Both the position numbers and the translations under genes were made by a program. A stretch of 64,000 bases of DNA, from positions 30,646 through 94,645 of the forward strand of contig JBMNFJ010000015.1 in NCBI GenBank assembly GCA_050949255.1. The letters are read 5' to 3'. Below are positions 28,760 through 43,974 of the stretch, in pieces. How positions within the stretch are numbered: position 1 is the first letter of the stretch; each line of letters begins with the position of its first letter. This stretch comes from Caldicoprobacterales bacterium (GTDB lineage: Bacteria; Bacillota; Clostridia; Caldicoprobacterales; UBA3941). The notes beneath the pieces were generated by a model, which saw nothing but the letters and a program-made list of their open reading frames with translations, ran no database searches and was not told where the DNA came from.

Positions 28760-29779
28760 TTAAAGCCACTTAACCAGCCAATCGTATGCCTTCCGCCCCG
28801 AAATCTCGTGATCCCCCTGGAAAAAATCAGAATCTATCCTGTCCTCTGCGTCAAGGAATCTATATATGGCCTTAATCTTTTCGTAGGCTTCCCTGGTCGC
28901 ATCTATGGGGAATATCGGATCATCTGATCCTGATTCCACAAGCAGAGGTCTGGGGGCTATAAGCCCGATAATATCCGGCATTTCAGCATGATTGACCACA
29001 CCCGGTATAAAGTTGTCCACACAATGGTAGATGGACATAACGCTGTCCTTAAAGGTGTTGGTATACCCGCTGATTACCGCTGCCTTAATCCTGGTATCCA
29101 GAGCTGTGGCAAAACTACATACAAGGCCTCCTCCCGATATGCCCATGGCGCCAATTCTATCGGTATCCACATCATTTCTGGTTTCCAGATAGTCAATGGA
29201 GCGCTTAACGTCATTTACCCTAAGCCCCGCCATGGTCTTACCCATCATCAACAGATATGTGGATATCATATAGCAGGAGCTCTCATTGGGCTCTTTGTTC
29301 AGGTCCTCCTTAAGCCGCCTGTCCCCAAAGCCTAAAAGTTCCGGTACGATTACTATGAATCCCCTCCTCATAAGCTCCAGGGCAAAGTTCTTCTGGTAGC
29401 TGGGTTCACCTATATTATCTGTCCCATCAGGATTCAATCCTACAATCTCCTTGCTCCCGTAGCCGTGCCCATGGCAGGCTACCACAGCAGGCAGCTTCCC
29501 GGATGCGTTCTTGGGCTTTAACAGGTATGCGGGTATGGGAAGATCCACATCCCCTGCATATACCACTCGCTGCATCAAGTAATCCGGGTATTCCCTCTCT
29601 TCAACAACGGTTGGACTAAGGTCAACCTCCGGTTTGGGAAATCCTCCCAAATCCCGGGCAAAAATCTCCCTCAGCCCATCCCTCCATCTTGTGTACTCAT
29701 CCATATGCCTTACGTCAAATTTAAACTTAGGCCGATTTTTTTCATATAAATTTTTTAAATATCTATCAGGATTCCACAT
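28760..29779 (-). CDS. Alpha/beta hydrolase (acetyl-esterase / dienelactone-hydrolase-like)
   Basis: GISGGG nucleophile elbow and HGHGY segment. ATG 29779 preceded by GGAAGGGGGGAG; the ORF is open to 29818. Confidence 0.75.
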   Translation of the reverse strand: MWNPDRYLKNLYEKNRPKFKFDVRHMDEYTRWRDGLREIFARDLGGFPKPEVDLSPTVVEEREYPDYLMQRVVYAGDVDLPIPAYLLKPKNASGKLPAVVACHGHGYGSKEIVGLNPDGTDNIGEPSYQKNFALELMRRGFIVIVPELLGFGDRRLKEDLNKEPNESSCYMISTYLLMMGKTMAGLRVNDVKRSIDYLETRNDVDTDRIGAMGISGGGLVCSFATALDTRIKAAVISGYTNTFKDSVMSIYHCVDNFIPGVVNHAEMPDIIGLIAPRPLLVESGSDDPIFPIDATREAYEKIKAIYRFLDAEDRIDSDFFQGDHEISGRKAYDWLVKWL

Positions 29780-29947
29780 GTAACTCCCCCCTTCCAAATA
29801 CCTTATTCTACGCTGCATTCAACAATTCCTGCCTAAGGGGAATTAATCATAACCTATTTGTAACAATACTTTTAAACTACCTATCCCATATCCGGTATGG
29901 GAGACAATGCCCATTCCTCGTCGGTCTTAATCTGCATAGCTTAAAGA

Positions 29948-30787
29948 CTATAAACTGGGGATCCCTTGTAATATATCCAGGAGTATCTCCTTTGCCTTGA
30001 GGATATCCTCCCTTTGCCGGGGACCGGATATCTCCCTTTCGATTATCAGGGCGCCCTTGTAGTTATGTTCCCTCAACTTCCTTATCAATACAGGGAAATC
30101 CACCATGCCTTCCCCTACAGGTGTCTCACTGCCCAACCGGTGTCCATCGGTGGGATAGAGCCCGTCCTTTACATGTACTCCTCTGATATAGTCTCCGTAC
30201 ATATCCACCGCATCCTGGGGGTTGCCCCTTCCGTACATCAAAAGGTTTGCAGGATCCAGATTTATACCCAGGTTGTCAAGCCCGATATCCTGAATGGTTC
30301 TAAGCAGGGTTATGGGAGTTTCCTGACCTGTCTCAAAGTTAAAGTACAGGCCCAGATCCTTGCAGTACCTGGCCACATCCCTTATTATCATCACTGTCTC
30401 CATGTACTCGGTGGTAGAAGGGTTTTCCGGAATAAAGCCCACATGGGTCGTAATATCGGTGACGCCCAGAAGTTTTGCGAAATCCGCACCCTTTTTAAGG
30501 GCCTTCATCCTCTCAAAGCGAAACTCCTTGGGTACCAGACCCAGGGTAGAGGGTCCGTCAATAAAATCCCAAATGGCCGGCCCGGGCCAACCTACCCACA
30601 GGCTGGAGATCTTAATATTATTGTCCTCCATCATCCCTTTGACCTCCCGGGCATTCTCTTCAGTGAAGTTTTCGCTTTGCCACCCGTTTAGCTGGCATAC
30701 ATTGAGGCTCAGATCCTTAATCTCCTGCACCCCATTCTCCAGTACCTTCTCCAGGGAAATTATAACTCCTATATCCAGCTTATACAT
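29948..30787 (-). CDS. Sugar phosphate isomerase/epimerase (xylose isomerase-like TIM barrel)
   Basis: 279 aa; FNFETGQE..GINLDPANL..HVKD pattern of AP_endonuc_2/XylA-like TIM barrels. Confidence 0.85.
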   Translation of the reverse strand: MYKLDIGVIISLEKVLENGVQEIKDLSLNVCQLNGWQSENFTEENAREVKGMMEDNNIKISSLWVGWPGPAIWDFIDGPSTLGLVPKEFRFERMKALKKGADFAKLLGVTDITTHVGFIPENPSTTEYMETVMIIRDVARYCKDLGLYFNFETGQETPITLLRTIQDIGLDNLGINLDPANLLMYGRGNPQDAVDMYGDYIRGVHVKDGLYPTDGHRLGSETPVGEGMVDFPVLIRKLREHNYKGALIIEREISGPRQREDILKAKEILLDILQGIPSL

Positions 30788-30844
30788 AAACCAACACTCC
30801 CTATGATTTAATAAGCATCTGAAACCATGGCTACGGCAATTTGC

Positions 30845-31867
30845 TTACAGCTCAACAAATTCACCCTGCCTGTCAGCGGATTCCGCCTCTGCATTAGCGA
30901 TTCTTATGGTCTCCATGGTGCTGTATGGGTCTGCCGTCTCTATAGGAGTATCGTTAAGAAGGGCATCTATAAAGTACCTGATCTCCCTATAGTATCCCGA
31001 TCCCTCTTCAAGTTCCGGTGTAAAGGATTCCTCTCCATGGGGGTAGACCGTCAATTTGCCCTTTTCGTATATGAGAGTAGCCTTTTCAAAGTTCACCCTA
31101 AAGGTCATCTCAAACCCAAAGTCAGTGCTGTTGATGGTCCAATCATCCTGGGCGTTTATAACCATGTTATCGTAGATATAGTTGGTGGAAACCGCATCAT
31201 AGCCGCTTTCGGGGAATACGTTTCTGGCCACCGTTGACACTTTCCTGGGTGTGCCGAAAAGCCAGTTGATGGTGTCTACATCGTGGACGTGCTGGTCCAG
31301 GAGTACCCCACCGCTCTTTTCCTTCTTAAGGAGCCAGTTGTTATAGGACCATTTGGGTGTAGTCCCTCCTCTGAAGAAATATCCACTGACTACCTTGCCG
31401 TATTCGCCGTTGTCCACACATTTTTTCAGGTACTCGTATTCCGGCCAGAACCTTAAGCATTGGGCAATCATCAGCTTCTTCCCATTGGCCTCTGCCGCAT
31501 CTATCATGGCCTGGCATTCATCGGGGTTAAGGGCCATTGGCTTTTCGCACAATACATGGATGCCCTTATTGAGGGCCTTTATGGTCGCTTCCGCATGAAG
31601 ATATGTAGGCAGGGCGATGTCAACATAGTCCAGCTCCTCCTTCTCCAGCATTTCGTCGATATCCGTATAGAGATTGTACTTGCTGAAGTCATATTTTTGG
31701 TTGCCTACATCTATATTCCCGGGCAGGAACTTGCCCTGGAACTTGTCTTCATCTATATCGCATATTGCCACCAGCTCTACGGGGTGCCCTTCCTCTGCCA
31801 ACTGCATGTAGATGTCAAGATGGCCCCTTCCCATGAAGCCTATGCCGATTAATCCTACTTTCAACAT
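30845..31867 (-). CDS. Gfo/Idh/MocA family oxidoreductase
   Basis: MLKVGLIGIGFMGRGH Rossmann N-terminus and VLCEKP motif. AAAGGAGG RBS. Confidence 0.9.
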   Translation of the reverse strand: MLKVGLIGIGFMGRGHLDIYMQLAEEGHPVELVAICDIDEDKFQGKFLPGNIDVGNQKYDFSKYNLYTDIDEMLEKEELDYVDIALPTYLHAEATIKALNKGIHVLCEKPMALNPDECQAMIDAAEANGKKLMIAQCLRFWPEYEYLKKCVDNGEYGKVVSGYFFRGGTTPKWSYNNWLLKKEKSGGVLLDQHVHDVDTINWLFGTPRKVSTVARNVFPESGYDAVSTNYIYDNMVINAQDDWTINSTDFGFEMTFRVNFEKATLIYEKGKLTVYPHGEESFTPELEEGSGYYREIRYFIDALLNDTPIETADPYSTMETIRIANAEAESADRQGEFVEL

Positions 31868-31901
31868 ATAATTGCCTCCTTTTTTTCTTTAAATTAACTC
31901 A

Positions 31902-32169
31902 TTGTGCTACTCAACCATATGGCGGTAATGGCTATTGACCGCTACCTAACATCGTAAGAGTAACTTTATCGTTGAAGTTTCAAAAAATTAATTATAGTTT
32001 TATGTAGCAAACGTTAATGGTAATGTATTTTTTGAAACTTCCCTCTTCCGACATTGATTTGGAGAAAACTAAGGCATTTCTGCATTCCATAAGCCAAGTT
32101 TTCTTGGCCAAATCAATGAAGTCATCCGCTTTTCAATAGCCAATTACCTAAGGTTGTGAATTAGCACAA
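31902..32169 (-). repeat. Second full-length copy of the modular intergenic element (inverted relative to 16415-16683)
   Basis: Its reverse complement aligns end to end with 16415-16683, with most positions identical. It lies between two co-directional genes, ending about 17 nt from the Gfo gene RBS. Confidence 0.9.
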
Positions 32170-32226
32170 GAGGTTTAATTTATCCCTATATTAAGTTAAA
32201 CTTAAAAAATTTCTGTTACTCATGAA

Positions 32227-33072
32227 TTATAGCCCCAGGATCCTGTCCATAGCTATGGAAGTGGTGTAGATGGTTTGGTCGGGATAGTTTTTATACACGC
32301 CCATTTCTGCTATCACATAATCGTCATAGCCCACCTTCCTGAACTGCTCCATAACCGCAGGATAGTTTACATCGCCGGACAAAAGGTCTACAAATCCGTT
32401 TATATTACCTACGCTGACTCTAAAATCCTTGAAGTGTACCTTTTTGATCCTCTTGCCCAGGATCTTGATCCAGTGTTCCGGATAGCCCGTGCTTACCACG
32501 TTACCCACGTCAAAATACACTCCAACGTAAGGGCTGTCTATCTTGTCTACAAAATCCCTCATCTCCAAGGGGGACAGGAGGAACTTGTTCCATACATTCT
32601 CCAACCCTATATTTACCTTTACCTCCTCGGCATACTCCTTTAATTCCATAAAGGCTTCCAGGGCCAAGTCGTAGGCAACATCGTATTCCGTTACCTCACC
32701 GTCCGGTATAAAGTCAGCCCCTACAAGGCCGGGCACTACCAAAATGGTGTCAGCACCCAAAAGGGCTGCCAGGTCCAGCTGCCTCCGGACTATGGATTTG
32801 GCCTTTTCCCTGGTATTCCTGTCGGAGCTGGTAAACGGATATCTCCAGTACAGGCCGGTGGCCAGGCTGGGGGTCTCTATCCCCTCCCCTTCGGCAATCC
32901 GCTTAAGTTCCCTGATATCCTCGTCACTACTGTCAAGCCCCACTATACCGGTTTCATCAAGCCCGAATTCTATGCCGTCATAACCTGCGTCCTTTGCCAT
33001 TTCGATATACTCCCTGGCAGTAAGTCCTCCCCTAAAGGACCAGATGTTTATCCCCTTCTTCACATATACCAC
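32227..33072 (-). CDS. Sugar phosphate isomerase/epimerase (xylose isomerase-like TIM barrel), second paralog
   Basis: 281 aa; GYDGIEF..GLENVWN..YFDVGN..HFKD pattern. Confidence 0.85.
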   Translation of the reverse strand: MVYVKKGINIWSFRGGLTAREYIEMAKDAGYDGIEFGLDETGIVGLDSSDEDIRELKRIAEGEGIETPSLATGLYWRYPFTSSDRNTREKAKSIVRRQLDLAALLGADTILVVPGLVGADFIPDGEVTEYDVAYDLALEAFMELKEYAEEVKVNIGLENVWNKFLLSPLEMRDFVDKIDSPYVGVYFDVGNVVSTGYPEHWIKILGKRIKKVHFKDFRVSVGNINGFVDLLSGDVNYPAVMEQFRKVGYDDYVIAEMGVYKNYPDQTIYTTSIAMDRILGL

Positions 33073-33101: not shown

Positions 33102-33638
33102 CTAGCTCTGCGGTACAGCCTCGTCTACTCTTTTAGTCTTCCTTTTACGCTTGTTGGCCAGATAAATTTTTTCCCTCTCCCTGAACAGGGCCTCTTCTTC
33201 AGGTGTTCTCAGTTCCAGTTCGGGAACCTTGGTGGGTCTGTTGTTGTCATCTAAAGCCACCATGGTGAAGTAAGCGGTGAGGGCCACCTTTGGGGGTTCG
33301 TCCACCTTCAGATCCTCCACCAAAACCCTGACTGCTATTTCCATGGAGCTCCTCCCTACAAAGACCAGCTGGGTTTTGCAGGTTACCAGCTGCCCCACCA
33401 GTATCGGGAGGTAAAATTCCAATTCGTCCACCCTGGCAGTGACAACGTTGGTGCGGCAATGCTTTACAGCGGTGACAAAGGCCGTGGTATCCATAAACTT
33501 CATTATCTCACCGCCATGGACATTGCCCGCGGGGTTGGCCTCGCTGGGTAACATGATCCTTGACATAACGGTACGGGATTCCGCCACGGTTTTAGATGTG
33601 CTTTTGGGTTCAACTCTTGTTCCATCTTTGGATGACAT
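33102..33638 (-). CDS. Acyl-CoA thioesterase (hotdog fold, YciA/BFIT-like)
   Basis: MLPSEANPAGNVHGGEIMKFMD..VTARVDELEF motif. GGAGG RBS. Confidence 0.8.
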   Translation of the reverse strand: MSSKDGTRVEPKSTSKTVAESRTVMSRIMLPSEANPAGNVHGGEIMKFMDTTAFVTAVKHCRTNVVTARVDELEFYLPILVGQLVTCKTQLVFVGRSSMEIAVRVLVEDLKVDEPPKVALTAYFTMVALDDNNRPTKVPELELRTPEEEALFREREKIYLANKRKRKTKRVDEAVPQS

Positions 33639-33814: not shown

Positions 33815-34783
33815 CTAACCTATGCCCAACATCTGCCGGGCAAAATTATAGGCGTTTACAAAGCTTTTAGGGGAGGCGATGCCCTTGTAGGCGATGTCAA
33901 AGGCTGTCCCATGATCTACCGAAGTCCGGATCACCTTAAGGCCCAGGGTGACATTTACTCCGCCCTCAAAGTCCAAGAGCTTTATGGGAATGTGCCCCTG
34001 GTCATGATACATGCACACTACGGCATGGTATTCCTTGTTAACTGCCTTTAAGAATACCGTATCAGGAGATATCGGCCCGACTGCGTCTATCCCCAATTCC
34101 CGGGCAGAATGTACCGCCGGCAGTATCTCGTCTATCTCTTCCCTCCCAAAGGCGCCGCCCTCTCCGGCATGGGGATTCAGGCCGGCCACTGCGATTTTGG
34201 GGTTTTCGATAAAGGGGCTAAGAGCATTATGGGTTAACTCTATAACTCTTAAAATCCGCTCCCTTTTTACGGCGGCTATGGCTTCCTGCATCGAGACATG
34301 GGTACTTACATGGGTCACCACCAACCTGTCCGATGCCAACATCATGGTGTAGTTGTCCTGTTGGCAGACCTGTGCGATAAGTTCAGTGTGGCCTGTAAAA
34401 TCAGGAAAGCTTAAGCGGGTGGCCTCCTTGTTCATAGGCAGGGTGACAATGGCATGAATGATGCCATCAAGGGCCATCTCCGTTGCCCTTTCCACATATC
34501 TATAGGCCGCATAGCCGCTGGTCTTTGAGATTTGGCCTATCTCCAACATGGATTCGTCCATCAGCCCCATATCGTATATATTCAGCATACCTTTCCTGTA
34601 TTCTGAAACATCTTCTATTCTGTTAAAAGGTATTTCTATGTCCAGGAGCCTACCACAATAATCCAGGATCTTGTAATCCCCTATTACGATAAAGTCCCCT
34701 TCCAGGCTGTCCTCCCTAAAGGCCCTCAAGATAAGTTCAGGGCCGATACCGCTTGCATCTCCCATGGTTATGCCTATTAACAT
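33815..34783 (-). CDS. PdxA-family 4-hydroxythreonine-4-phosphate dehydrogenase-like enzyme (PdxA2-type)
   Basis: IGITMGDASGIGPE..HTEL..GLNPHAGEGG..MYHDQGHIP..SVDHGTAFDIA. ATG 34783 overlaps the kinase stop by 7 nt. Confidence 0.88.
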   Translation of the reverse strand: MLIGITMGDASGIGPELILRAFREDSLEGDFIVIGDYKILDYCGRLLDIEIPFNRIEDVSEYRKGMLNIYDMGLMDESMLEIGQISKTSGYAAYRYVERATEMALDGIIHAIVTLPMNKEATRLSFPDFTGHTELIAQVCQQDNYTMMLASDRLVVTHVSTHVSMQEAIAAVKRERILRVIELTHNALSPFIENPKIAVAGLNPHAGEGGAFGREEIDEILPAVHSARELGIDAVGPISPDTVFLKAVNKEYHAVVCMYHDQGHIPIKLLDFEGGVNVTLGLKVIRTSVDHGTAFDIAYKGIASPKSFVNAYNFARQMLGIG

Positions 34784-36069
34784 CCTCTTATCCCTTCTTT
34801 TCTGCAATTTATCCTCTGTCCGATTATGTCCATAAGGGTGCCCTCATCTCCAAAACCTCCAGCCTTGGTTATCAGAGTGCCCTTAAATAATTTGCTCTCC
34901 AGGGTAGACAGGGGAATCCCTGTCAGCAATTCGGTTTTGGGTATAATAGCGGTACAATGAAGTTTCTCCACTATTCCCAGGGCAGTATCCCCGCCAAAGA
35001 CTATCAAGGTTCCTATATTTATACACTTCATTACATCCCTGACAAGGGAACCAATAAATTCTGCTATCATCCTGTATGTACTTACTCCACCGGGTCCATC
35101 CCCATGGTCCCTTATGGGGATTATGTCCCCCTTTTCCGTAGCGGTCTTCAAAATAAAGCACCCATGGTCCATAAGAGCCTGTACTGTATTCTCTGTCATG
35201 GTTTCATAATCCGGCCTGTTTAAGCAGGCATCTTGAACCATCATATGTGGGCTTATGAGCTGACTCTTTATTCCCTGCTTTTCAGCATATGCTACCTGGG
35301 ACATGGACACCTGGTTGACACTGCCGCAGACTATTAGAATTGGTTTATGTAAACTATTCTCGATACCTGCCTCTCTACTCTCCGATTTAAGGTTGAATAG
35401 CCGGGGCAAATACGGGGCGAACCCTGCACAGCCGGCAACCCCCATAATGTCTTGTCTCCGGGTTAGCATATGAGATATCTGTACCAGGTCCTCTTCCGTC
35501 ATGGCATCGAAAACAAAGATGCCCTTCCCCTCATCCATGCTCAACCCACGGCTGATATGGGAGGTCTTTATAACGTGAATCTCCTTATCCGTCTGTTTAT
35601 TAATAATGCTTGGTATATGGGCTTCTTCTATGGGGTTTAAGGGGTCCCTTGCAAAAACTGTCCTATGAAGGGGTATGTCATCTACGTATTGATTCCCATC
35701 CTTCGTGGTCCTGCCGGCCTTGGGATAGGCGGGGATAAACGGCAATCTTTCCATCTTGCAGGCATCCATCAATGCGGCTATTTCAGAGCCTATGTTTCCC
35801 CTTAAGGTGGAATCTGTCTTCTTATAGAAGAACTTCACTCCCCTTCTCCCAGCCTCACGGCAGAGATGATACACCCTTTTATATGCCTCCTGAGGCTCTA
35901 TATGCCGGCTTTGGGTGTCCACCACCAGTACCTTAACCTGATCTTCTATATTATCCCAGTCCATATCCTCATGGAGAAAAACCTGGGTAGTTATCCCCAT
36001 ATGGGAAAACTGGACACCGGTGTCCAAGGCCCCGGTAAAATCATCAGCAATGATCAATAACCTATCCAT
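34777..36069 (-). CDS. Four-carbon acid sugar kinase family protein (DUF1537)
   Basis: LLIIADDFTGALDTGVQF N-terminus and C-terminal ITKAGGFG are typical of DUF1537 kinases. AGGAGG RBS. Confidence 0.85.
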   Translation of the reverse strand: MDRLLIIADDFTGALDTGVQFSHMGITTQVFLHEDMDWDNIEDQVKVLVVDTQSRHIEPQEAYKRVYHLCREAGRRGVKFFYKKTDSTLRGNIGSEIAALMDACKMERLPFIPAYPKAGRTTKDGNQYVDDIPLHRTVFARDPLNPIEEAHIPSIINKQTDKEIHVIKTSHISRGLSMDEGKGIFVFDAMTEEDLVQISHMLTRRQDIMGVAGCAGFAPYLPRLFNLKSESREAGIENSLHKPILIVCGSVNQVSMSQVAYAEKQGIKSQLISPHMMVQDACLNRPDYETMTENTVQALMDHGCFILKTATEKGDIIPIRDHGDGPGGVSTYRMIAEFIGSLVRDVMKCINIGTLIVFGGDTALGIVEKLHCTAIIPKTELLTGIPLSTLESKLFKGTLITKAGGFGDEGTLMDIIGQRINCRKEGIRGC

Positions 36070-36108
36070 ACAAGCCTCCTGAGAAGTTCCCAGCTATGAT
36101 GTGTTGAA

Positions 36109-37350
36109 TCAAAGGGTTTTTAAACGTCCATCTTTATTAAGGATTGGCTCCGCTTCACCCAAAATCCGGATTTCCCGCTCTTTATAGACGGGATCTTTCA
36201 TAATTCTCTCCAGGGCAGCCGGGGAAACCTGCAACTCCCCCAGTTCCAGGGTAGATGGTATCCTCATGGCAAGGATATCCTCGGGCTTTCTGGGGCCCAT
36301 TGCCCTTAAGGCCCATTCTATTGCCTGGGCATCATCCCTGGCCACCATTGGCATCCTGCCCCGCTTTATAAAGGAAGAAGTCATAACGTTTTCGTAGGTC
36401 ACGGCAAAATCGATATCATTGTAAAAGTCCTGGGTTATAAAGTCTGCCAGACCCATTCCCAGGGCATTTCCCCCTGAAGCCTTTGTCAGTGAACAGGCTA
36501 TAATGTAGGATATGTTGGGAACCTCCGGCTCCTCCTGACCCAGAATACCCATTCTGCCTATTATATTGGTATCAAGGCCTGTGCCGCTCTTGTCCTTGCC
36601 CAGCTGGTCCACGATGAGAAGGTCCAATCGGTCTATAGGGAGTGAAGGCATATTCTTACGGGCCAAATCCAATAATTCGGCATCCAGGGCTTCTATCCCC
36701 CGGGAGTCCGCCGCCTTTATCGCAAGGGTCTGATCCAGGGCATTCTCAACTATGCCAATACCCAGCAGGATTTTTCCTGTAGCCAGGATCTTCCTCGCGG
36801 CCTTCGGCACCAGCTCCCGCAATCCGTATACCCCCAGCCTATGCATCTCAAGAGCCTGGGCATGTTTTCCCAAACCTATAACGCACATCTTCATCAATCC
36901 CGATTCTACCGGACCATGAAAGTCCGTATGGGGCTTTACCCGGTTGATAACTATTACCCCGTCGGCCTCATAGGCATCCCTGGACATATACAGCTTAAAG
37001 TCGTTGTCCTCGTTTGGTATCGATACCACGTCCATGGTTGAGATGATGGGAGCCCCCATTGTCTCTTCCGTAATGCCGTAATGCTCCAGAACCTCCCTTT
37101 GCCCTTCTGCCGTTGCGCCACCATGGCTGCCCATGGCTGGGATAATAAAGGGTAGTGCGCCTTGGGATTTAACTTCATCAACAGCAGCCTTTGTAATAGC
37201 AGCTATATTTGCAATGCCGCGGCTCCCCGCCGTAATAGCAATGCGGCTGCCCTTCTTAAATTTGACTCCCGTATTTTGCATCTGCTTTCTTGTAGTCCCG
37301 CTGATATCGTCAACTTTCTCACTTGAAAAGCTTTGAGCGATAGGTATCAT
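36109..37350 (-). CDS. LarA N-terminal-domain-like (DUF2088-type) protein, function unknown
   Basis: RIAITAGSRGI..FIIPAMGSHGGAT..ADGVIVINRVKPHTDFHGPVESGLMKM parallels the LarA N-domain layout but without the LarA His residues. Start uncertain: ATG 37350 has an AGAGGA RBS; the ORF is open to GTG 37422. Confidence 0.55.
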   Translation of the reverse strand: MIPIAQSFSSEKVDDISGTTRKQMQNTGVKFKKGSRIAITAGSRGIANIAAITKAAVDEVKSQGALPFIIPAMGSHGGATAEGQREVLEHYGITEETMGAPIISTMDVVSIPNEDNDFKLYMSRDAYEADGVIVINRVKPHTDFHGPVESGLMKMCVIGLGKHAQALEMHRLGVYGLRELVPKAARKILATGKILLGIGIVENALDQTLAIKAADSRGIEALDAELLDLARKNMPSLPIDRLDLLIVDQLGKDKSGTGLDTNIIGRMGILGQEEPEVPNISYIIACSLTKASGGNALGMGLADFITQDFYNDIDFAVTYENVMTSSFIKRGRMPMVARDDAQAIEWALRAMGPRKPEDILAMRIPSTLELGELQVSPAALERIMKDPVYKEREIRILGEAEPILNKDGRLKTL

Positions 37351-37435
37351 CAATAGGTCCTCTGCATGCATAAGCCAGTTCATCTCCCATTTTTTATCGG
37401 TATTCTTATTGTATAATATCACAGTTTAATGTGGG

Positions 37436-37500
37436 GTAGCAATTAAATAAGGTGACACGGATATCGATGAAGTCATCCACTTATCAGTAGCAATTACTAT
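37436..37500 (-). repeat. Short degenerate fragment of the intergenic element (one end plus start of hairpin A)
   Basis: Reverse complement AGTAATTGCTACTGATAAGTGGATGACTTCATCGAT resembles GGTAATGGCTATTGATAAGCGGATGACTTCATTGAT. Confidence 0.5.
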
Positions 37501-37731
37501 TACACCAACTATCCTTTGGTGTCATAGTCAAGACAGCAATCCAGCTTATTGCTCCTTCATACATTCTATTCCCGTGCAAAATCCTAATCAACCGTAGGTT
37601 TCAAATAGAATAGGCTATATAATTTTTTGAAGAGTGTATCATAAAACAGTATACCATGGGGACATCTGAAAAATAAGTGAAGATATATTGATAAACATTT
37701 GGCTGATTATTTTTTGAAAGAAAAAATTTTG

Positions 37732-37759
37732 TTGGTAATTTCTCAGATAGGTGTATAAT
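37732..37759 (+). promoter_or_regulatory. Candidate sigma-A promoter
   Basis: TTGGTA, 16 nt spacer, TATAAT, about 85 nt upstream of ATG 37845. Confidence 0.4.
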
Positions 37760-37844
37760 AGACATTATTAATATCTCATTTTCTGGATATGGGGTACGCT
37801 AACATAAACAGCTAACCTTATCCATCTATAAAGGAGGCCCCAGC

Positions 37845-38333
37845 ATGAGGTTTATAGTGAGACAAAGGATATTCTCCTTTGGGGACAGTTTCACCATCAA
37901 GGATGAACTGGGAAATGACCATTTTGTAGTCAAGGGTAGAGTTTTTACCCTGGGGAACAAGCTTAGGATCTATGACATGGCCGGACAGGAATTGTACTAT
38001 ATAGAGCAGAAGATACTAAGATTTCTACCCGAATATAACATATATCAATACGGCCAGCCCATAGCAAAGGTTAAAAAGGAATTCACCTTCTTAAAGCCCC
38101 GATTCAACATTACCAGTACCCTCGGTAACTTTACCATTCATGGTAATTTCCTGGGTATGAACTTTTCCATTCTAAAAAATGGCCGTCACGTAGCCGAGGT
38201 ATCCAAACGCTGGTTCTCATTTTCCGACACCTATGGTGTAGATATTGCGGAAGGCGAGGATTATGGATTTCTGCTGGCCTTGGCCATAGTGATAGACCAG
38301 ACAATCCACGATAACAATCACAATAACAGTTAA
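37845..38333 (+). CDS. LURP-one-related (YxjI/DUF567, tubby-like fold) family protein
   Basis: RQRIFSFGDSFTIKDELGNDHFVVKGRVFTLGNKLRIYDMAGQELYYIEQK repeat pattern typical of this family. AAAGGAGG RBS. Confidence 0.8.
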   Translation: MRFIVRQRIFSFGDSFTIKDELGNDHFVVKGRVFTLGNKLRIYDMAGQELYYIEQKILRFLPEYNIYQYGQPIAKVKKEFTFLKPRFNITSTLGNFTIHGNFLGMNFSILKNGRHVAEVSKRWFSFSDTYGVDIAEGEDYGFLLALAIVIDQTIHDNNHNNS

Positions 38334-38419: not shown

Positions 38420-39115
38420 TCACATTTCATCATTTCTATATATATGCTCTATTCCTGAAGGTCTTTGTCTGTACCATCTGATAAGCTCATCCATGGAATC
38501 TATATCTCCAGGTAAAATTATACCCCCTCTTCCAACATCCCCTGTTTGATGTGAGTCTGATCCCGAGCTCATCATTAAGCCGTTGCTTTTAGCATAGTTG
38601 TAAGCCCTGTCGTTGCCGGAATCATGCCTGGGGTTTCCGTTGTGTACCTCCATGCCATCCAACAGATTACCGGCTGCGGGGGTCAGGCCTGGACGAAAAG
38701 GATGGGCCTGGAAGATCAAAGCTCCCGTCTCTTGGATATGGTCCCTGAAGTCTTCCAATGTGTAGAGGTATAGCCTTGGATTCTGAAGCAAATAGTCCTC
38801 GTCCAGCCCAAACACCAGGTAGTCTTCCGATCCGTAGACGAACCTGATTTCCATCCCGAGAAAAACCTTTACTCCAAGGGCATTACCTCTCTCCAAGGCG
38901 GCTTTATAGCCGGAAAGAAAGGATTGGATCTTTTCCTCCCAGGGTCTATTCCCCAGGGATTCAAAGTACCCCTTATAATAGTGATCCGTTATTATAACGC
39001 CTCCGTAACCGGCCTCCTTATAAAGCTCAATCATCTCCTCGGCTGGTACCTTTCCGCAGGGGCTAACCTGGCTGGTGTGCACGTGGGTGTCAAGCAGCAT
39101 CAGATTATCCTTCAT
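38420..39115 (-). CDS. PHP-domain metal-dependent phosphoesterase
   Basis: LLDTHVHTSQVSPCG..VIITDHY..GMEI..FQAHPFR..SGSDSH. Confidence 0.8.
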   Translation of the reverse strand: MKDNLMLLDTHVHTSQVSPCGKVPAEEMIELYKEAGYGGVIITDHYYKGYFESLGNRPWEEKIQSFLSGYKAALERGNALGVKVFLGMEIRFVYGSEDYLVFGLDEDYLLQNPRLYLYTLEDFRDHIQETGALIFQAHPFRPGLTPAAGNLLDGMEVHNGNPRHDSGNDRAYNYAKSNGLMMSSGSDSHQTGDVGRGGIILPGDIDSMDELIRWYRQRPSGIEHIYRNDEM

Positions 39116-40631: not shown

Positions 40632-41075
40632 CTATAAGTTCCTTTCTTCTATCTCTCTAATCATATCTACCCTTCTCTGGTGCCTGCCGCCTTTAAATTC
40701 CGCCTTCAGCCAACTGTCTATGATCATCTTTGCAAGGCCAATGCCCACAACCCTGGCGCCTAAAGCCAGGATATTGGTGTCGTTATGCTCCCTGGACAAC
40801 ACTGCCGTGTAGCAATCGCTGCAGGCCACGGCTCGTATTCCCTTAACCTTGTTAGCCGCCAGGGATATACCCACCCCTGTACCGCAGATTAGGATGGCTT
40901 TCTCACACTCGCCCCTGGCCACGGCCTTGGCGACCGCCTCACCATAGATGGGATAGTCGGTACTCTCTTCTGAATACGTACCAAAATCCTTATAGGCTAT
41001 TCCCTTTTCATCAAGATATTTTTTTATCTCCTCTTTAAAACGGAAAGCAGCATGGTCACTGCCAATAGCCAACAT
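40632..41075 (-). CDS. rpiB: Ribose-5-phosphate isomerase B (RpiB/LacA/LacB family)
   Basis: IGSDHAAF..ILICGTGVGISLAANK..RAV..SREHNDTNILALGARV. Confidence 0.9.
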   Translation of the reverse strand: MLAIGSDHAAFRFKEEIKKYLDEKGIAYKDFGTYSEESTDYPIYGEAVAKAVARGECEKAILICGTGVGISLAANKVKGIRAVACSDCYTAVLSREHNDTNILALGARVVGIGLAKMIIDSWLKAEFKGGRHQRRVDMIREIEERNL

Positions 41076-42337: not shown

Positions 42338-43843
42338 TTATTCAGCTGCCGGCCTTTTCTTTGCCTTATCTGCAGCTCCGGCATTTTCGGTAGCTGCCTG
42401 GCGATCCTGTGCCATCTCTTCAACGGTCTTGGTCTTGAGCCTGGCGGCACCCTTGTAGCCTTCCCTGGTTGGGATCAGATTGCCTTTGGCCAGCCTTTCC
42501 TTAGCTTTTGCTATAGCCTCTCCATATTGGGGCAGCCACTGTTCCTGGGCTACCAGCATCTCATCCACCATTTGCCAAATCTCCGGAGGATTGCATACAG
42601 CCCCGACCAAGGGATCCATCATCATGGCCTGGCGCAACAGGGTGTCATCGGCATGGACTGCTGCTTCCACAGCCAGCCTTTGTACCGATATGCTGGCATT
42701 GCATATGGCAGCGCATCCCAGGGGCAGGTCCCCTATCTTTGGAATACTGATTCCGTTATAGTCTACATACCCCGGCACTTCAACGATGGCATCATCGGGC
42801 AGGTTGGTTATGGTTCCGTTGTTTACCACATTAAAATGCCCTCTATAGACTCGCCCTGTTTCCAGCCCCTCTACTATATAGGAGCCATGTTCGCCGCTTC
42901 TGTCATTGGGATCAAATTTGCGGGGCTCTTCCTTTAACCAGTTGGGAAAATCGGTCTCAAACCAATTGCGCCCTTCGGTACAAACCCTCAGATATCCTCC
43001 GGTTTCCCCGTTTATCCAGGTGCCCAAATCAATCCAGTCCATGATCTCGTCGGGACGTTTCCTGTACCAGGGCAGGTATTCGCTCAGATGGCCGTTGGAT
43101 TCCGTGCTGTAGTAGCCAAAACGCCGCAGTATATCTATGCGCACCTTTTCGGTTTTGCTGTAAACGGGATGCTCCTCGAAGGCCTTTAAAAGCTTACCCG
43201 TCATGTCCTCTCCCTTATGCTTTACCTGTATATACCATGTTTGATGGTTGATACCGGCGCAGATAATATCCACCTCGTCCTGCTCCAGTCCAAGAACCTC
43301 TGCGATTTGCTGGTGTCCGCCCTGAACACCGTGACACAGCCCGATGGTATTTACTCCGCCATACTTGTTGCATGCCCAGGTGATCATGGCATTGGGATTT
43401 GCATAGTTAAGAAGCAGGCAGCCGGGCTCTGCAACCTCCCTGATATCCTTGCAAAACTCCAACATAACCGGGATACCCCGCTGACCGTACATGATACCAC
43501 CTGCACACAGGGTATCGCCTACACATTGGTCCACACCATATTTAAGGGGTATATCCACATCCAACTGAAAGGCTTCAAGGCCACCTATCCGAACTACGTT
43601 GAATACATACCTGGCATCCCTTAGCGCCTCCCGGCGATCGGTAGTGGCCATGATCTTGATGTCAAGGCCATTGGCGTCGATATCCCTTTGGCAGAGCTGG
43701 GTGACCATGGACAGATTGCGTTCGTTTATATCCGTAAATGCCACCTCAATATTGTGGAACTCCGGCACCGAAAGCAGATCCTTTAAAAGTCCCCTGGTAA
43801 ACCCTATACTTCCGGCCCCAATAAATGCAACTTTAAAAGACAT
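42338..43843 (-). CDS. Glycoside hydrolase family 4 (NAD/Mn-dependent alpha-galactosidase/alpha-glucosidase type) with a Lys/Ala-rich C-terminal tail
   Basis: FKVAFIGAGSIGFT..NYANP..GLCHG GH4 signatures. GGAGG RBS before ATG 43843. Confidence 0.88.
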   Translation of the reverse strand: MSFKVAFIGAGSIGFTRGLLKDLLSVPEFHNIEVAFTDINERNLSMVTQLCQRDIDANGLDIKIMATTDRREALRDARYVFNVVRIGGLEAFQLDVDIPLKYGVDQCVGDTLCAGGIMYGQRGIPVMLEFCKDIREVAEPGCLLLNYANPNAMITWACNKYGGVNTIGLCHGVQGGHQQIAEVLGLEQDEVDIICAGINHQTWYIQVKHKGEDMTGKLLKAFEEHPVYSKTEKVRIDILRRFGYYSTESNGHLSEYLPWYRKRPDEIMDWIDLGTWINGETGGYLRVCTEGRNWFETDFPNWLKEEPRKFDPNDRSGEHGSYIVEGLETGRVYRGHFNVVNNGTITNLPDDAIVEVPGYVDYNGISIPKIGDLPLGCAAICNASISVQRLAVEAAVHADDTLLRQAMMMDPLVGAVCNPPEIWQMVDEMLVAQEQWLPQYGEAIAKAKERLAKGNLIPTREGYKGAARLKTKTVEEMAQDRQAATENAGAADKAKKRPAAE

Positions 43844-43974
43844 GTAAGTATACCTCCCTATTAAATGAATAATGTTAAACCCCAAATAATAAGCTATATT
43901 GCTCTTTAATCGCTTAATTGAAGATCTTTGGATCTTGAGCAGGCAGTCCCATAAAATCCTGACAAAAAGCAGTA

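Follow-up and report, generated by a model that had tools for sequence, protein, structure and literature searches.

Enzymes of the LarA family invert the C2 centre of 2-hydroxy acids by a transient hydride transfer to a nickel-pincer cofactor, with two histidines acting as acid and base. Among the four-carbon acid sugars, or tetronates, D-erythronate and D-threonate differ at C2 only, and this centre is lost when PdxA2 oxidizes C3 and the product decarboxylates to dihydroxyacetone phosphate (DHAP). To our knowledge, the described tetronate pathways contain no epimerase and employ a separate kinase/dehydrogenase pair for each epimer. The catabolism of D-threonate and D-erythronate by DUF1537 kinases (DtnK, DenK) and PdxA2 was reportedly described by Zhang et al. 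(2016, PNAS). The subject of the present work is a three-gene locus of a Caldicoprobacterales bacterium, an anaerobic member of the Clostridia, located in a 64,000-nucleotide stretch (the window) of contig JBMNFJ010000015.1 (assembly GCA_050949255.1), where a putative isomerase gene of LarA group 22 (LarAH22; gene 1) is followed by genes for a DUF1537 acid-sugar kinase (gene 2) and a PdxA2-type dehydrogenase (gene 3). The best explanation of this trio, held here with evenly balanced confidence, is a catabolic operon in which D-erythronate and D-threonate, or the 4-phosphates of both, are interconverted by a C2-epimerase and carried to DHAP by one kinase/PdxA2 pair. The group 22 family is curated and the kinase/PdxA2 pathway is known; what is new is the joining of both. 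In the literature searched, no paper was found that joins nickel-pincer enzymes with the DUF1537 kinase/PdxA2 pathway, and no mention of PdxA, DUF1537 or a kinase was found in the LarA papers searched.

Operon Organization

The initial annotation had placed three genes here, and all three are present in the open reading frame (ORF) listing of the 64-kb window as tightly packed, co-directional frames on the minus strand (36109-37422, 34777-36069 and 33815-34807). Gene 1 (36109..37371, minus strand), a putative nickel-pincer nucleotide (NPN)-dependent 2-hydroxy-acid epimerase by virtue of its NCBIfam model NF052515, its AlphaFold 2 (AF2) fold and its invariant residues, probably starts at ATG 37371 and encodes a protein of 420 amino acids. 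The longest ORF extends to GTG 37422; the ATG is preferred because close homologs begin at the same methionine and because residues 1-15 of the longer translation are disordered in the structural model. A GGGAG sequence lies 12 nt upstream of this ATG. The earlier estimate of about 415-437 amino acids is thereby narrowed, and the motifs quoted with it (RIAITAGSRGI, IIPAMGSHGG and VINRVKPHTDFHG..SGLMK) all occur in the gene 1 translation.

Both downstream junctions were read directly. The stop codon of gene 1 (TGA, 36111-36109) is separated by 39 nt from the ATG at 36069 that begins the kinase gene (34777..36069, minus strand; 430 amino acids), and a ribosome-binding site, AGGAGG, is found 6 nt upstream of that ATG. 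The dehydrogenase gene (33815..34783, minus strand) begins at ATG 34783, which overlaps the kinase stop codon (TAA, 34779-34777) by 7 nt and yields a protein of 322 amino acids, the same length as its homologs. With this start, the 7-nt overlap reported previously holds. Pfam bears out the DUF1537 and PdxA calls made from sequence: gene 2 comprises SBD_N and NBD_C domains and gene 3 is a PdxA protein. As had also been remarked, no lar genes, transporter or regulator are adjacent, none being found within about 8 kb.

Gene 1 as a Group 22 LarA Homolog

At equivalog level, gene 1 matches the NCBIfam model NF052515 ("nickel pincer cofactor-dependent isomerase, group 22") over its full length, model positions 4-389 of 392; the score is 497.8 bits (E 2e-149) and the cut-off 400. 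When profile assignment is used to judge the family, as the initial annotation had proposed, the protein therefore falls in an isomerase family and in no non-isomerase family. Among Pfam families, DUF362 passes its threshold (29.2 bits versus 24), and Lar_N (PF09861, formerly DUF2088) reaches 17.5 bits, under its gathering threshold of 23.3; the two families belong to the same clan, CL0471. An AF2 model of the protein built on a homolog alignment has a predicted local distance difference test score (pLDDT) of 91.3 and a predicted template modelling score (pTM) of 0.88. In a Foldseek search of the PDB with this model, the top 15 places all go to LarA-family structures (probability 1.00, E 2e-11 to 3e-7), among them Mar2, LarA, GntE and the single-histidine enzymes, and the next match follows at E 8e-4.

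The catalytic and cofactor-binding residues of LarA can be traced in gene 1 by the mapping of Desguin 2020 Dataset S2 (PMC7583248). In an alignment of 24 homologs at 37-84% identity, R68, H100, H165, K178 and H194, the counterparts of LarA R75, H108, H174, K184 and H200, are invariant. By this mapping, K178 would tether the cofactor, H194 would be the nickel ligand, R68 would bind phosphate, and H100 and H165 would be catalytic. H194 is 16 residues past K178, a spacing as in LarA, and H100 and H165 are embedded in GSHGG and KPHTD, respectively. The 20 Group 22 proteins of the published dataset carry A-R-H-H-T-D-K-H as their signature at LarA positions D72, R75, H108, H174, F175, F176, K184 and H200 (PMC7583248), and gene 1 shares it. 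Judging from these columns, Group 22 keeps every element of the LarA catalytic machinery. The first inspection had held that the cofactor-binding histidines are not conserved; instead, H100, H165 and H194, as well as K178 and R68, are invariant in the 24 homologs and match the Group 22 columns. The suggestion that gene 1 might be an unrelated enzyme that shares the same fold is unlikely, given the conservation of the catalytic and cofactor residues and the presence of larB, larC and larE in the genome.

Links to solved LarA proteins from sequence comparison fail. A phmmer search of gene 1 against PDB sequences gave no match at E <= 1, a profile of the 24 sequences matched just 9q2u marginally (E 0.54), alongside spurious TALE and parvovirus matches, and hhalign of the gene 1 profile with the group 18 LarA homolog of the same genome gave a probability of 0.55%, which is not significant, with the four catalytic motifs aligned. 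Gene 1 therefore represents a very divergent branch, and its family link rests on NCBIfam, the fold and the published Group 22 alignment. From these, it is predicted to bind NPN and to act as an isomerase. The group is large: public data contain no fewer than 7,999 sequence clusters at E <= 1e-30, most of them annotated just as DUF362, DUF2088 or hypothetical proteins. In Table S3 of Desguin 2020, Group 22 is entered as "unknown function" (PMC7583248).

Cofactor Supply

The genome (2.45 Mb, 95.9% complete) holds the genes for cofactor synthesis. The initial annotation had called for a genome search for larB, larC and larE, and all three were found, on another contig than the operon: larE, larB and larC are side by side on contig 8 (L045:2904-10862; labels beginning with L denote the loci compared), each above its curated cut-off. 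They are directly preceded by a nikABCDE-like ATP-binding cassette (ABC) transporter, with which they form a tight cluster for taking up nickel and making the cofactor. A second nickel-pincer enzyme is encoded on contig 16 (L046:7398-11805); it matches NF052594, group 18 "putative hexonate epimerase", with 669 bits, and its gene leads a tagaturonate reductase gene and an altronate/galactarate-dehydratase-like gene. LarC was found in eight of ten other genomes with a group 22 gene, and the two without it are metagenome-assembled genomes of unknown completeness.

The Kinase and the Dehydrogenase

The kinase, a DtnK/DenK-like protein and the sole DUF1537 protein of the genome, contains the SBD_N (PF07005, 192 bits) and NBD_C (PF17042, 60 bits) domains. 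Its best NCBIfam model is D-threonate kinase (NF047819, 239.7 bits), against 134.6 bits for 3-oxo-tetronate kinase. Among PDB entries, 4xfm (113 bits) and 4xfr (104 bits) are closest, versus 60-72 bits for 5dmh, 1yzy and 3dqq; we take these two nearest entries to be the tetronate-pathway representatives among solved structures. Gene 3, assigned as an NAD-dependent decarboxylating dehydrogenase of the PdxA2 type, matches PF04166 with 340.6 bits and is nearer to the solved PdxA2 or D-threonate-4-phosphate dehydrogenases (2hi1, 276 bits; 6e85, 257 bits) than to E. coli PdxA (1ps6, 179 bits).

A PdxA homolog invites the question of vitamin B6. Gene 3 scores 351.6 bits with the generic TIGR00557 pdxA model, above the cut-off of 290, so automatic annotation would name it a B6-biosynthetic PdxA. 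In addition, a passage of PMC10971088 citing Thiaville 2016 describes some DUF1537 members as able to phosphorylate 4-hydroxy-L-threonine. The trio might then hold a salvage or repair pair, a 4-hydroxy-L-threonine kinase followed by PdxA, with the LarA-like gene as an unrelated passenger. This is extremely improbable. Gene 3, the sole PdxA of the genome, resembles PdxA2 more closely than true PdxA, the linkage of PdxA with LarAH22 recurs in several phyla, and no match to pdxJ was found in the 95.9%-complete genome, so the PdxA product would be left without an onward route to pyridoxal 5'-phosphate. A role in vitamin B6 synthesis or salvage was rejected on the last ground. With TIGR00557, PdxA2-type genes are probably misnamed systematically, and the present locus flags the problem, as the model would assign B6 biosynthesis in a genome without a detected pdxJ.

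Conserved Linkage Across Genomes

Comparison of 33 reference-genome loci with a relative of gene 1 shows PdxA adjoining LarAH22 in ten of them (L011, L012, L015, L016, L018, L019, L021, L022, L023 and L024), and DUF1537 is present as well in half of these (L011, L012, L016, L023 and L024). All loci with an adjacent PdxA have a LarA homolog with at least 49% identity to gene 1. The contigs of two further loci, L010 and L013, stop just after a DUF1537 gene. In a maximum-likelihood tree of 28 proteins, the window, the ten PdxA-linked loci and the truncated L010 are held by one clade of 18 (Shimodaira-Hasegawa-like approximate likelihood ratio test, SH-aLRT, 99) that spans Bacillota, Atribacterota and Planctomycetota. 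PdxA is adjacent in 11 of the 18 clade members, six of which have DUF1537 too, and none of the ten tree proteins outside the clade shows PdxA linkage. The linkage with PdxA and DUF1537 thus defines one subclade of Group 22. Five clade genomes without an adjacent PdxA were checked, and four encode PdxA elsewhere; in Fonticella tunisiensis DSM 24455 it is apparently about 31 kb away on the same contig, assuming that contig C3 is the L014 record.

Independent metagenomic contigs, chosen by length alone, extend the pattern. The order in L051 and L053 is LacI, ABC transporter, PdxA, LarAH22, DUF1537, PdxA and GH4; that in L055 is PdxA, LarAH22, DUF1537 and PdxA; and in L057 a sigma-54 regulator, DUF1537, PdxA and LarAH22 are followed by a GntP acid-sugar permease. 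Three other contigs, L052 among them, showed no linkage. L058 is the same sequence as L016, and the two were counted once. L059, a JGI metagenome contig from a 98% identical strain, has the synteny of the window and adds synteny only; its LarAH22 is called in fragments of 315, 85 and 30 amino acids and its kinase in fragments of 76 and 327, which are probably due to sequencing frameshifts in that assembly. Neighbourhood analysis, named at the outset as a way to judge the grouping, accordingly finds the linkage of LarAH22 with PdxA and DUF1537 conserved in reference loci, the tree and metagenomic contigs. PdxA is the most constant partner of LarAH22, the kinase being sometimes absent, and the PdxA proteins near LarAH22 fall into at least three sequence subtypes. 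All loci of this comparison that bear the full trio come from metagenome-assembled genomes or metagenomic contigs.

A different arrangement is seen in Petroclostridium sp. (L052, NPML01000003.1), where the group 22 gene is located between a tripartite ATP-independent periplasmic (TRAP) transporter and genes for RpiB, a split transketolase, fructose-bisphosphate (FBP) aldolase, PHP and GntR. No PdxA or DUF1537 gene was found in that locus.

Proposed Pathway and Its Alternatives

In the proposed pathway, His100 and His165 of gene 1 would serve as the acid/base pair in a LarA-type proton-coupled hydride transfer and invert C2 of a 2-hydroxy acid. The enzyme would act on D-erythronate and D-threonate as free acids, or on the 4-phosphates made by the kinase, placing the epimerase before the kinase or just after it. 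One DUF1537 kinase together with one PdxA2-type dehydrogenase could then turn both epimers into DHAP and CO2. The cofactor would come from larE-larB-larC, located beside the nik-like nickel importer on the other contig. As a chemical precedent, LarA homologs epimerize 4-deoxy-threonate to 4-deoxy-erythronate as a side activity (PMC11770544). What we infer from the locus is that gene 1 reacts as an epimerase, that its substrate has four carbons, and where it stands relative to the kinase. The isomerase-family profile and the conserved linkage favor the initial preference for a new LarA-type racemase or epimerase that may feed the DUF1537/PdxA2 pair.

Several observations weigh against this pathway. 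The purified enzymes in Table 1 of Desguin 2020 include no LarAH22 (PMC7583248). LarA residues D72, Y294, Q295 and K298 are replaced in gene 1 by A65, D284, T285 and I288, and the same holds across Group 22; since Y294, Q295 and K298 are the substrate-carboxylate residues, substrate binding differs from that of the studied enzymes. The kinase, at 239.7 bits, is below the D-threonate kinase cut-off of 450 (NF047819) and gene 3, at 305.6 bits, is below the D-threonate-4-phosphate dehydrogenase cut-off of 583 (NF002891), so their substrates are not fixed. LarAH22 and PdxA occur without DUF1537 in L015, L018, L021 and L022. Two divergent PdxA paralogs, 35-37% identical to each other, flank LarAH22 and DUF1537 in L051 (4966-5967 and 8489-9457) and L055 (4933-5937 and 8484-9458), and the upstream paralog is a third PdxA subtype with 31-40% identity to all other compared PdxA proteins. 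A simple model of one pair for two epimers does not explain the kinase-less and double-PdxA loci. Frequent neighbours are sugar-type ABC transporters, GH4, Gfo/Idh/MocA, aldo/keto reductase and TIM-barrel genes, a company that hints at a larger pathway and possibly a longer substrate. Lastly, the published Group 22 contexts include short-chain dehydrogenase/reductase (SDR), IlvD/EDD dehydratase, FGGY kinase and glucuronate isomerase genes (PMC7583248), and for other members of the group these suggest pentonates or hexonates.

A longer acid sugar, a pentonate or hexonate, handled by the same enzyme classes is the main rival, on the unlikely side as it stands. LarAH22 would epimerize C2 of an aldonate, the kinase would phosphorylate the terminal hydroxyl, and the PdxA-type enzyme would oxidize C3 and decarboxylate in the manner of 6-phosphogluconate dehydrogenase to give the phosphate of a tetrulose or pentulose. 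Entry into central metabolism would then proceed through transketolase and isomerases of the RpiB-like or TIM-barrel type. The published contexts just listed agree with such a route, as do the scores of the kinase and PdxA under the tetronate-specific equivalog cut-offs. Genes for RpiB/LacAB, transketolase, FBP aldolase and PHP accompany LarAH22 in L052, L017, L020 and L025, and RpiB and PHP genes are found 1-3 kb upstream in the window. However, RpiB has a housekeeping role and may adjoin by chance, the transketolase-bearing loci are without PdxA and DUF1537, and gene 3 is nearest to the solved PdxA2 or D-threonate-4-phosphate dehydrogenases. All characterized DUF1537 kinases known to us act on a four-carbon acid or on 3-oxo-isoapionate, which also counts against a longer acid.

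The replaced residues bear on the chemistry as well. They argue against lactate racemase specificity, not against membership in the LarA superfamily, and a reading of gene 1 as lactate racemase was rejected on the difference in substrate residues. The 24-homolog alignment also shows an invariant GK-x-x-SG-x-G motif, rich in glycine, ahead of the substrate helix; read from sequence, it is a possible anion or phosphate site. LarAH22 might therefore use NPN beyond simple epimerization, in an internal redox isomerization (2-hydroxy to 2-oxo), or might act on a phosphorylated intermediate only. The possible phosphate site and substrate-binding residues unlike those of all studied LarAs (D72A; Y294/Q295/K298 to D/T/I) would suit such chemistry, and both PMC7583248 and PMC13524815 anticipate reactions other than epimerization in some LarA homolog groups. 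Yet both catalytic histidines, the hallmark of two-base racemization, are invariant in gene 1 and its homologs, and the groups proposed for non-epimerase reactions are those missing one histidine. Chemistry of this sort is very unlikely; if true, it would make LarAH22 the first LarA-fold enzyme outside the racemization or epimerization of 2-hydroxy acids.

A related and broader proposal is distinctly unlikely: that Group 22 provides the first LarA-fold nickel-pincer enzyme to work on a phosphorylated sugar acid, or to go beyond plain C2 inversion, and that the LarAH22-PdxA core, which occurs both with the DUF1537 kinase and without it and at times with two PdxA paralogs, marks an undescribed route. 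Candidates for that route are the clearing or burning of 4-phosphoerythronate and the one-carbon shortening of longer aldonates.

Neighboring Genes in the Window

Upstream of gene 1, an intergenic region (37372..37844) is common to the operon and a divergent LURP-one-related (LOR) gene (37845-38333, plus strand), and presumably contains the operon promoter. The LOR gene is the divergent neighbour in L011 and L059 as well. A promoter and terminator scan returned sites no more frequently than in shuffled sequence, which applies equally to the promoter-like hits in 37372..37844, and no Rfam family was found across 26-46 kb of the window, this region included. Further upstream are genes for PHP (38420-39115), M18 aminopeptidase, RpiB (40632-41075), GNAT and a GH4 glycosidase (42338-43885, minus strand), the last 5 kb upstream of the operon. 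GH4 also stands directly beside the LarAH22-DUF1537-PdxA block in L012:8074-9363, L051:9492-10778 and L053:9502-10788. Because GH4 is near the trio in the window and in these three loci, the growth substrate might arrive as a glycoside.

On the downstream side, a Hotdog-fold (4HBT) thioesterase gene (33102..33638, minus strand; PF03061, 60.5 bits) is 176 nt downstream of PdxA and may belong to the same transcription unit as the trio; a 4HBT thioesterase also follows PdxA in L012 (79% identity) and L059. Next is a co-directional module (28760..33072, minus strand) in which Pfam identifies two xylose-isomerase-like TIM barrels, an alpha/beta hydrolase and a Gfo/Idh/MocA oxidoreductase. Homologs of the oxidoreductase are near LarAH22 in L012, L015, L018, L019 and L022, with PdxA adjoining in most, and homologs of a TIM barrel (L015) and the alpha/beta hydrolase (L019) are likewise near it. 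Since its homologs recur near LarAH22 in other loci, the module may be functionally tied to the trio rather than being a separate glycoside-cleavage unit.

Significance and Comparison with Known Systems

The coupling of LarAH22 to a tetronate-type kinase and PdxA2 reduces the candidate substrates to a handful of acids, all purchasable or easily made, and renders the function directly testable. If confirmed, the D-erythronate/D-threonate pathway would give four-carbon acid-sugar catabolism a branch assisted by an epimerase, and nickel-pincer enzymology a physiological reaction new to it.

The closest described system is the D-threonate/D-erythronate pathway, with which the locus shares two enzyme families, here translationally coupled, and the expected end product, DHAP. 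Among NCBIfam models and solved structures alike, the tetronate-pathway representatives are the nearest ones to the kinase and to PdxA. Unlike that pathway, the operon is headed by a predicted NPN-dependent LarA-type gene, both partners fall below the equivalog cut-offs, and no TRAP transporter or regulator is adjacent. Within LarA Group 22 (PMC7583248; NF052515), gene 1 resembles its relatives in scoring above the cut-off and in bearing the A-R-H-H-T-D-K-H signature. The setting differs: the published context table features SDR, IlvD/EDD, LarE, TRAP and FGGY kinase genes but neither PdxA nor DUF1537 (PMC7583248), the partners seen here.

In fold, gene 1 shares the two-domain architecture of lactate racemase LarA (5HUQ), malate racemase Mar2 (6D6Z/7S91), gluconate 2-epimerase GntE (4NAR) and the broad-spectrum LarA of Isosphaera pallida (9EIA). 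It also has their tethering lysine, nickel-ligand histidine, two catalytic histidines and phosphate-binding arginine, but its identity to them is just 11-16% and D72, Y294, Q295 and K298 are replaced. A final comparison is offered by the single-histidine LarASp and LarABw (9Q3K/9Q3J), orphan LarA homologs from carbohydrate-type neighbourhoods with a suspected phosphorylated sugar ligand (PMC12611868). Gene 1 is an orphan LarA homolog too, and its model matches these structures at E 8e-9 and 3e-7. In contrast to these proteins, in which asparagine replaces the second catalytic histidine, Group 22 keeps both, and true two-base epimerization would therefore be expected.

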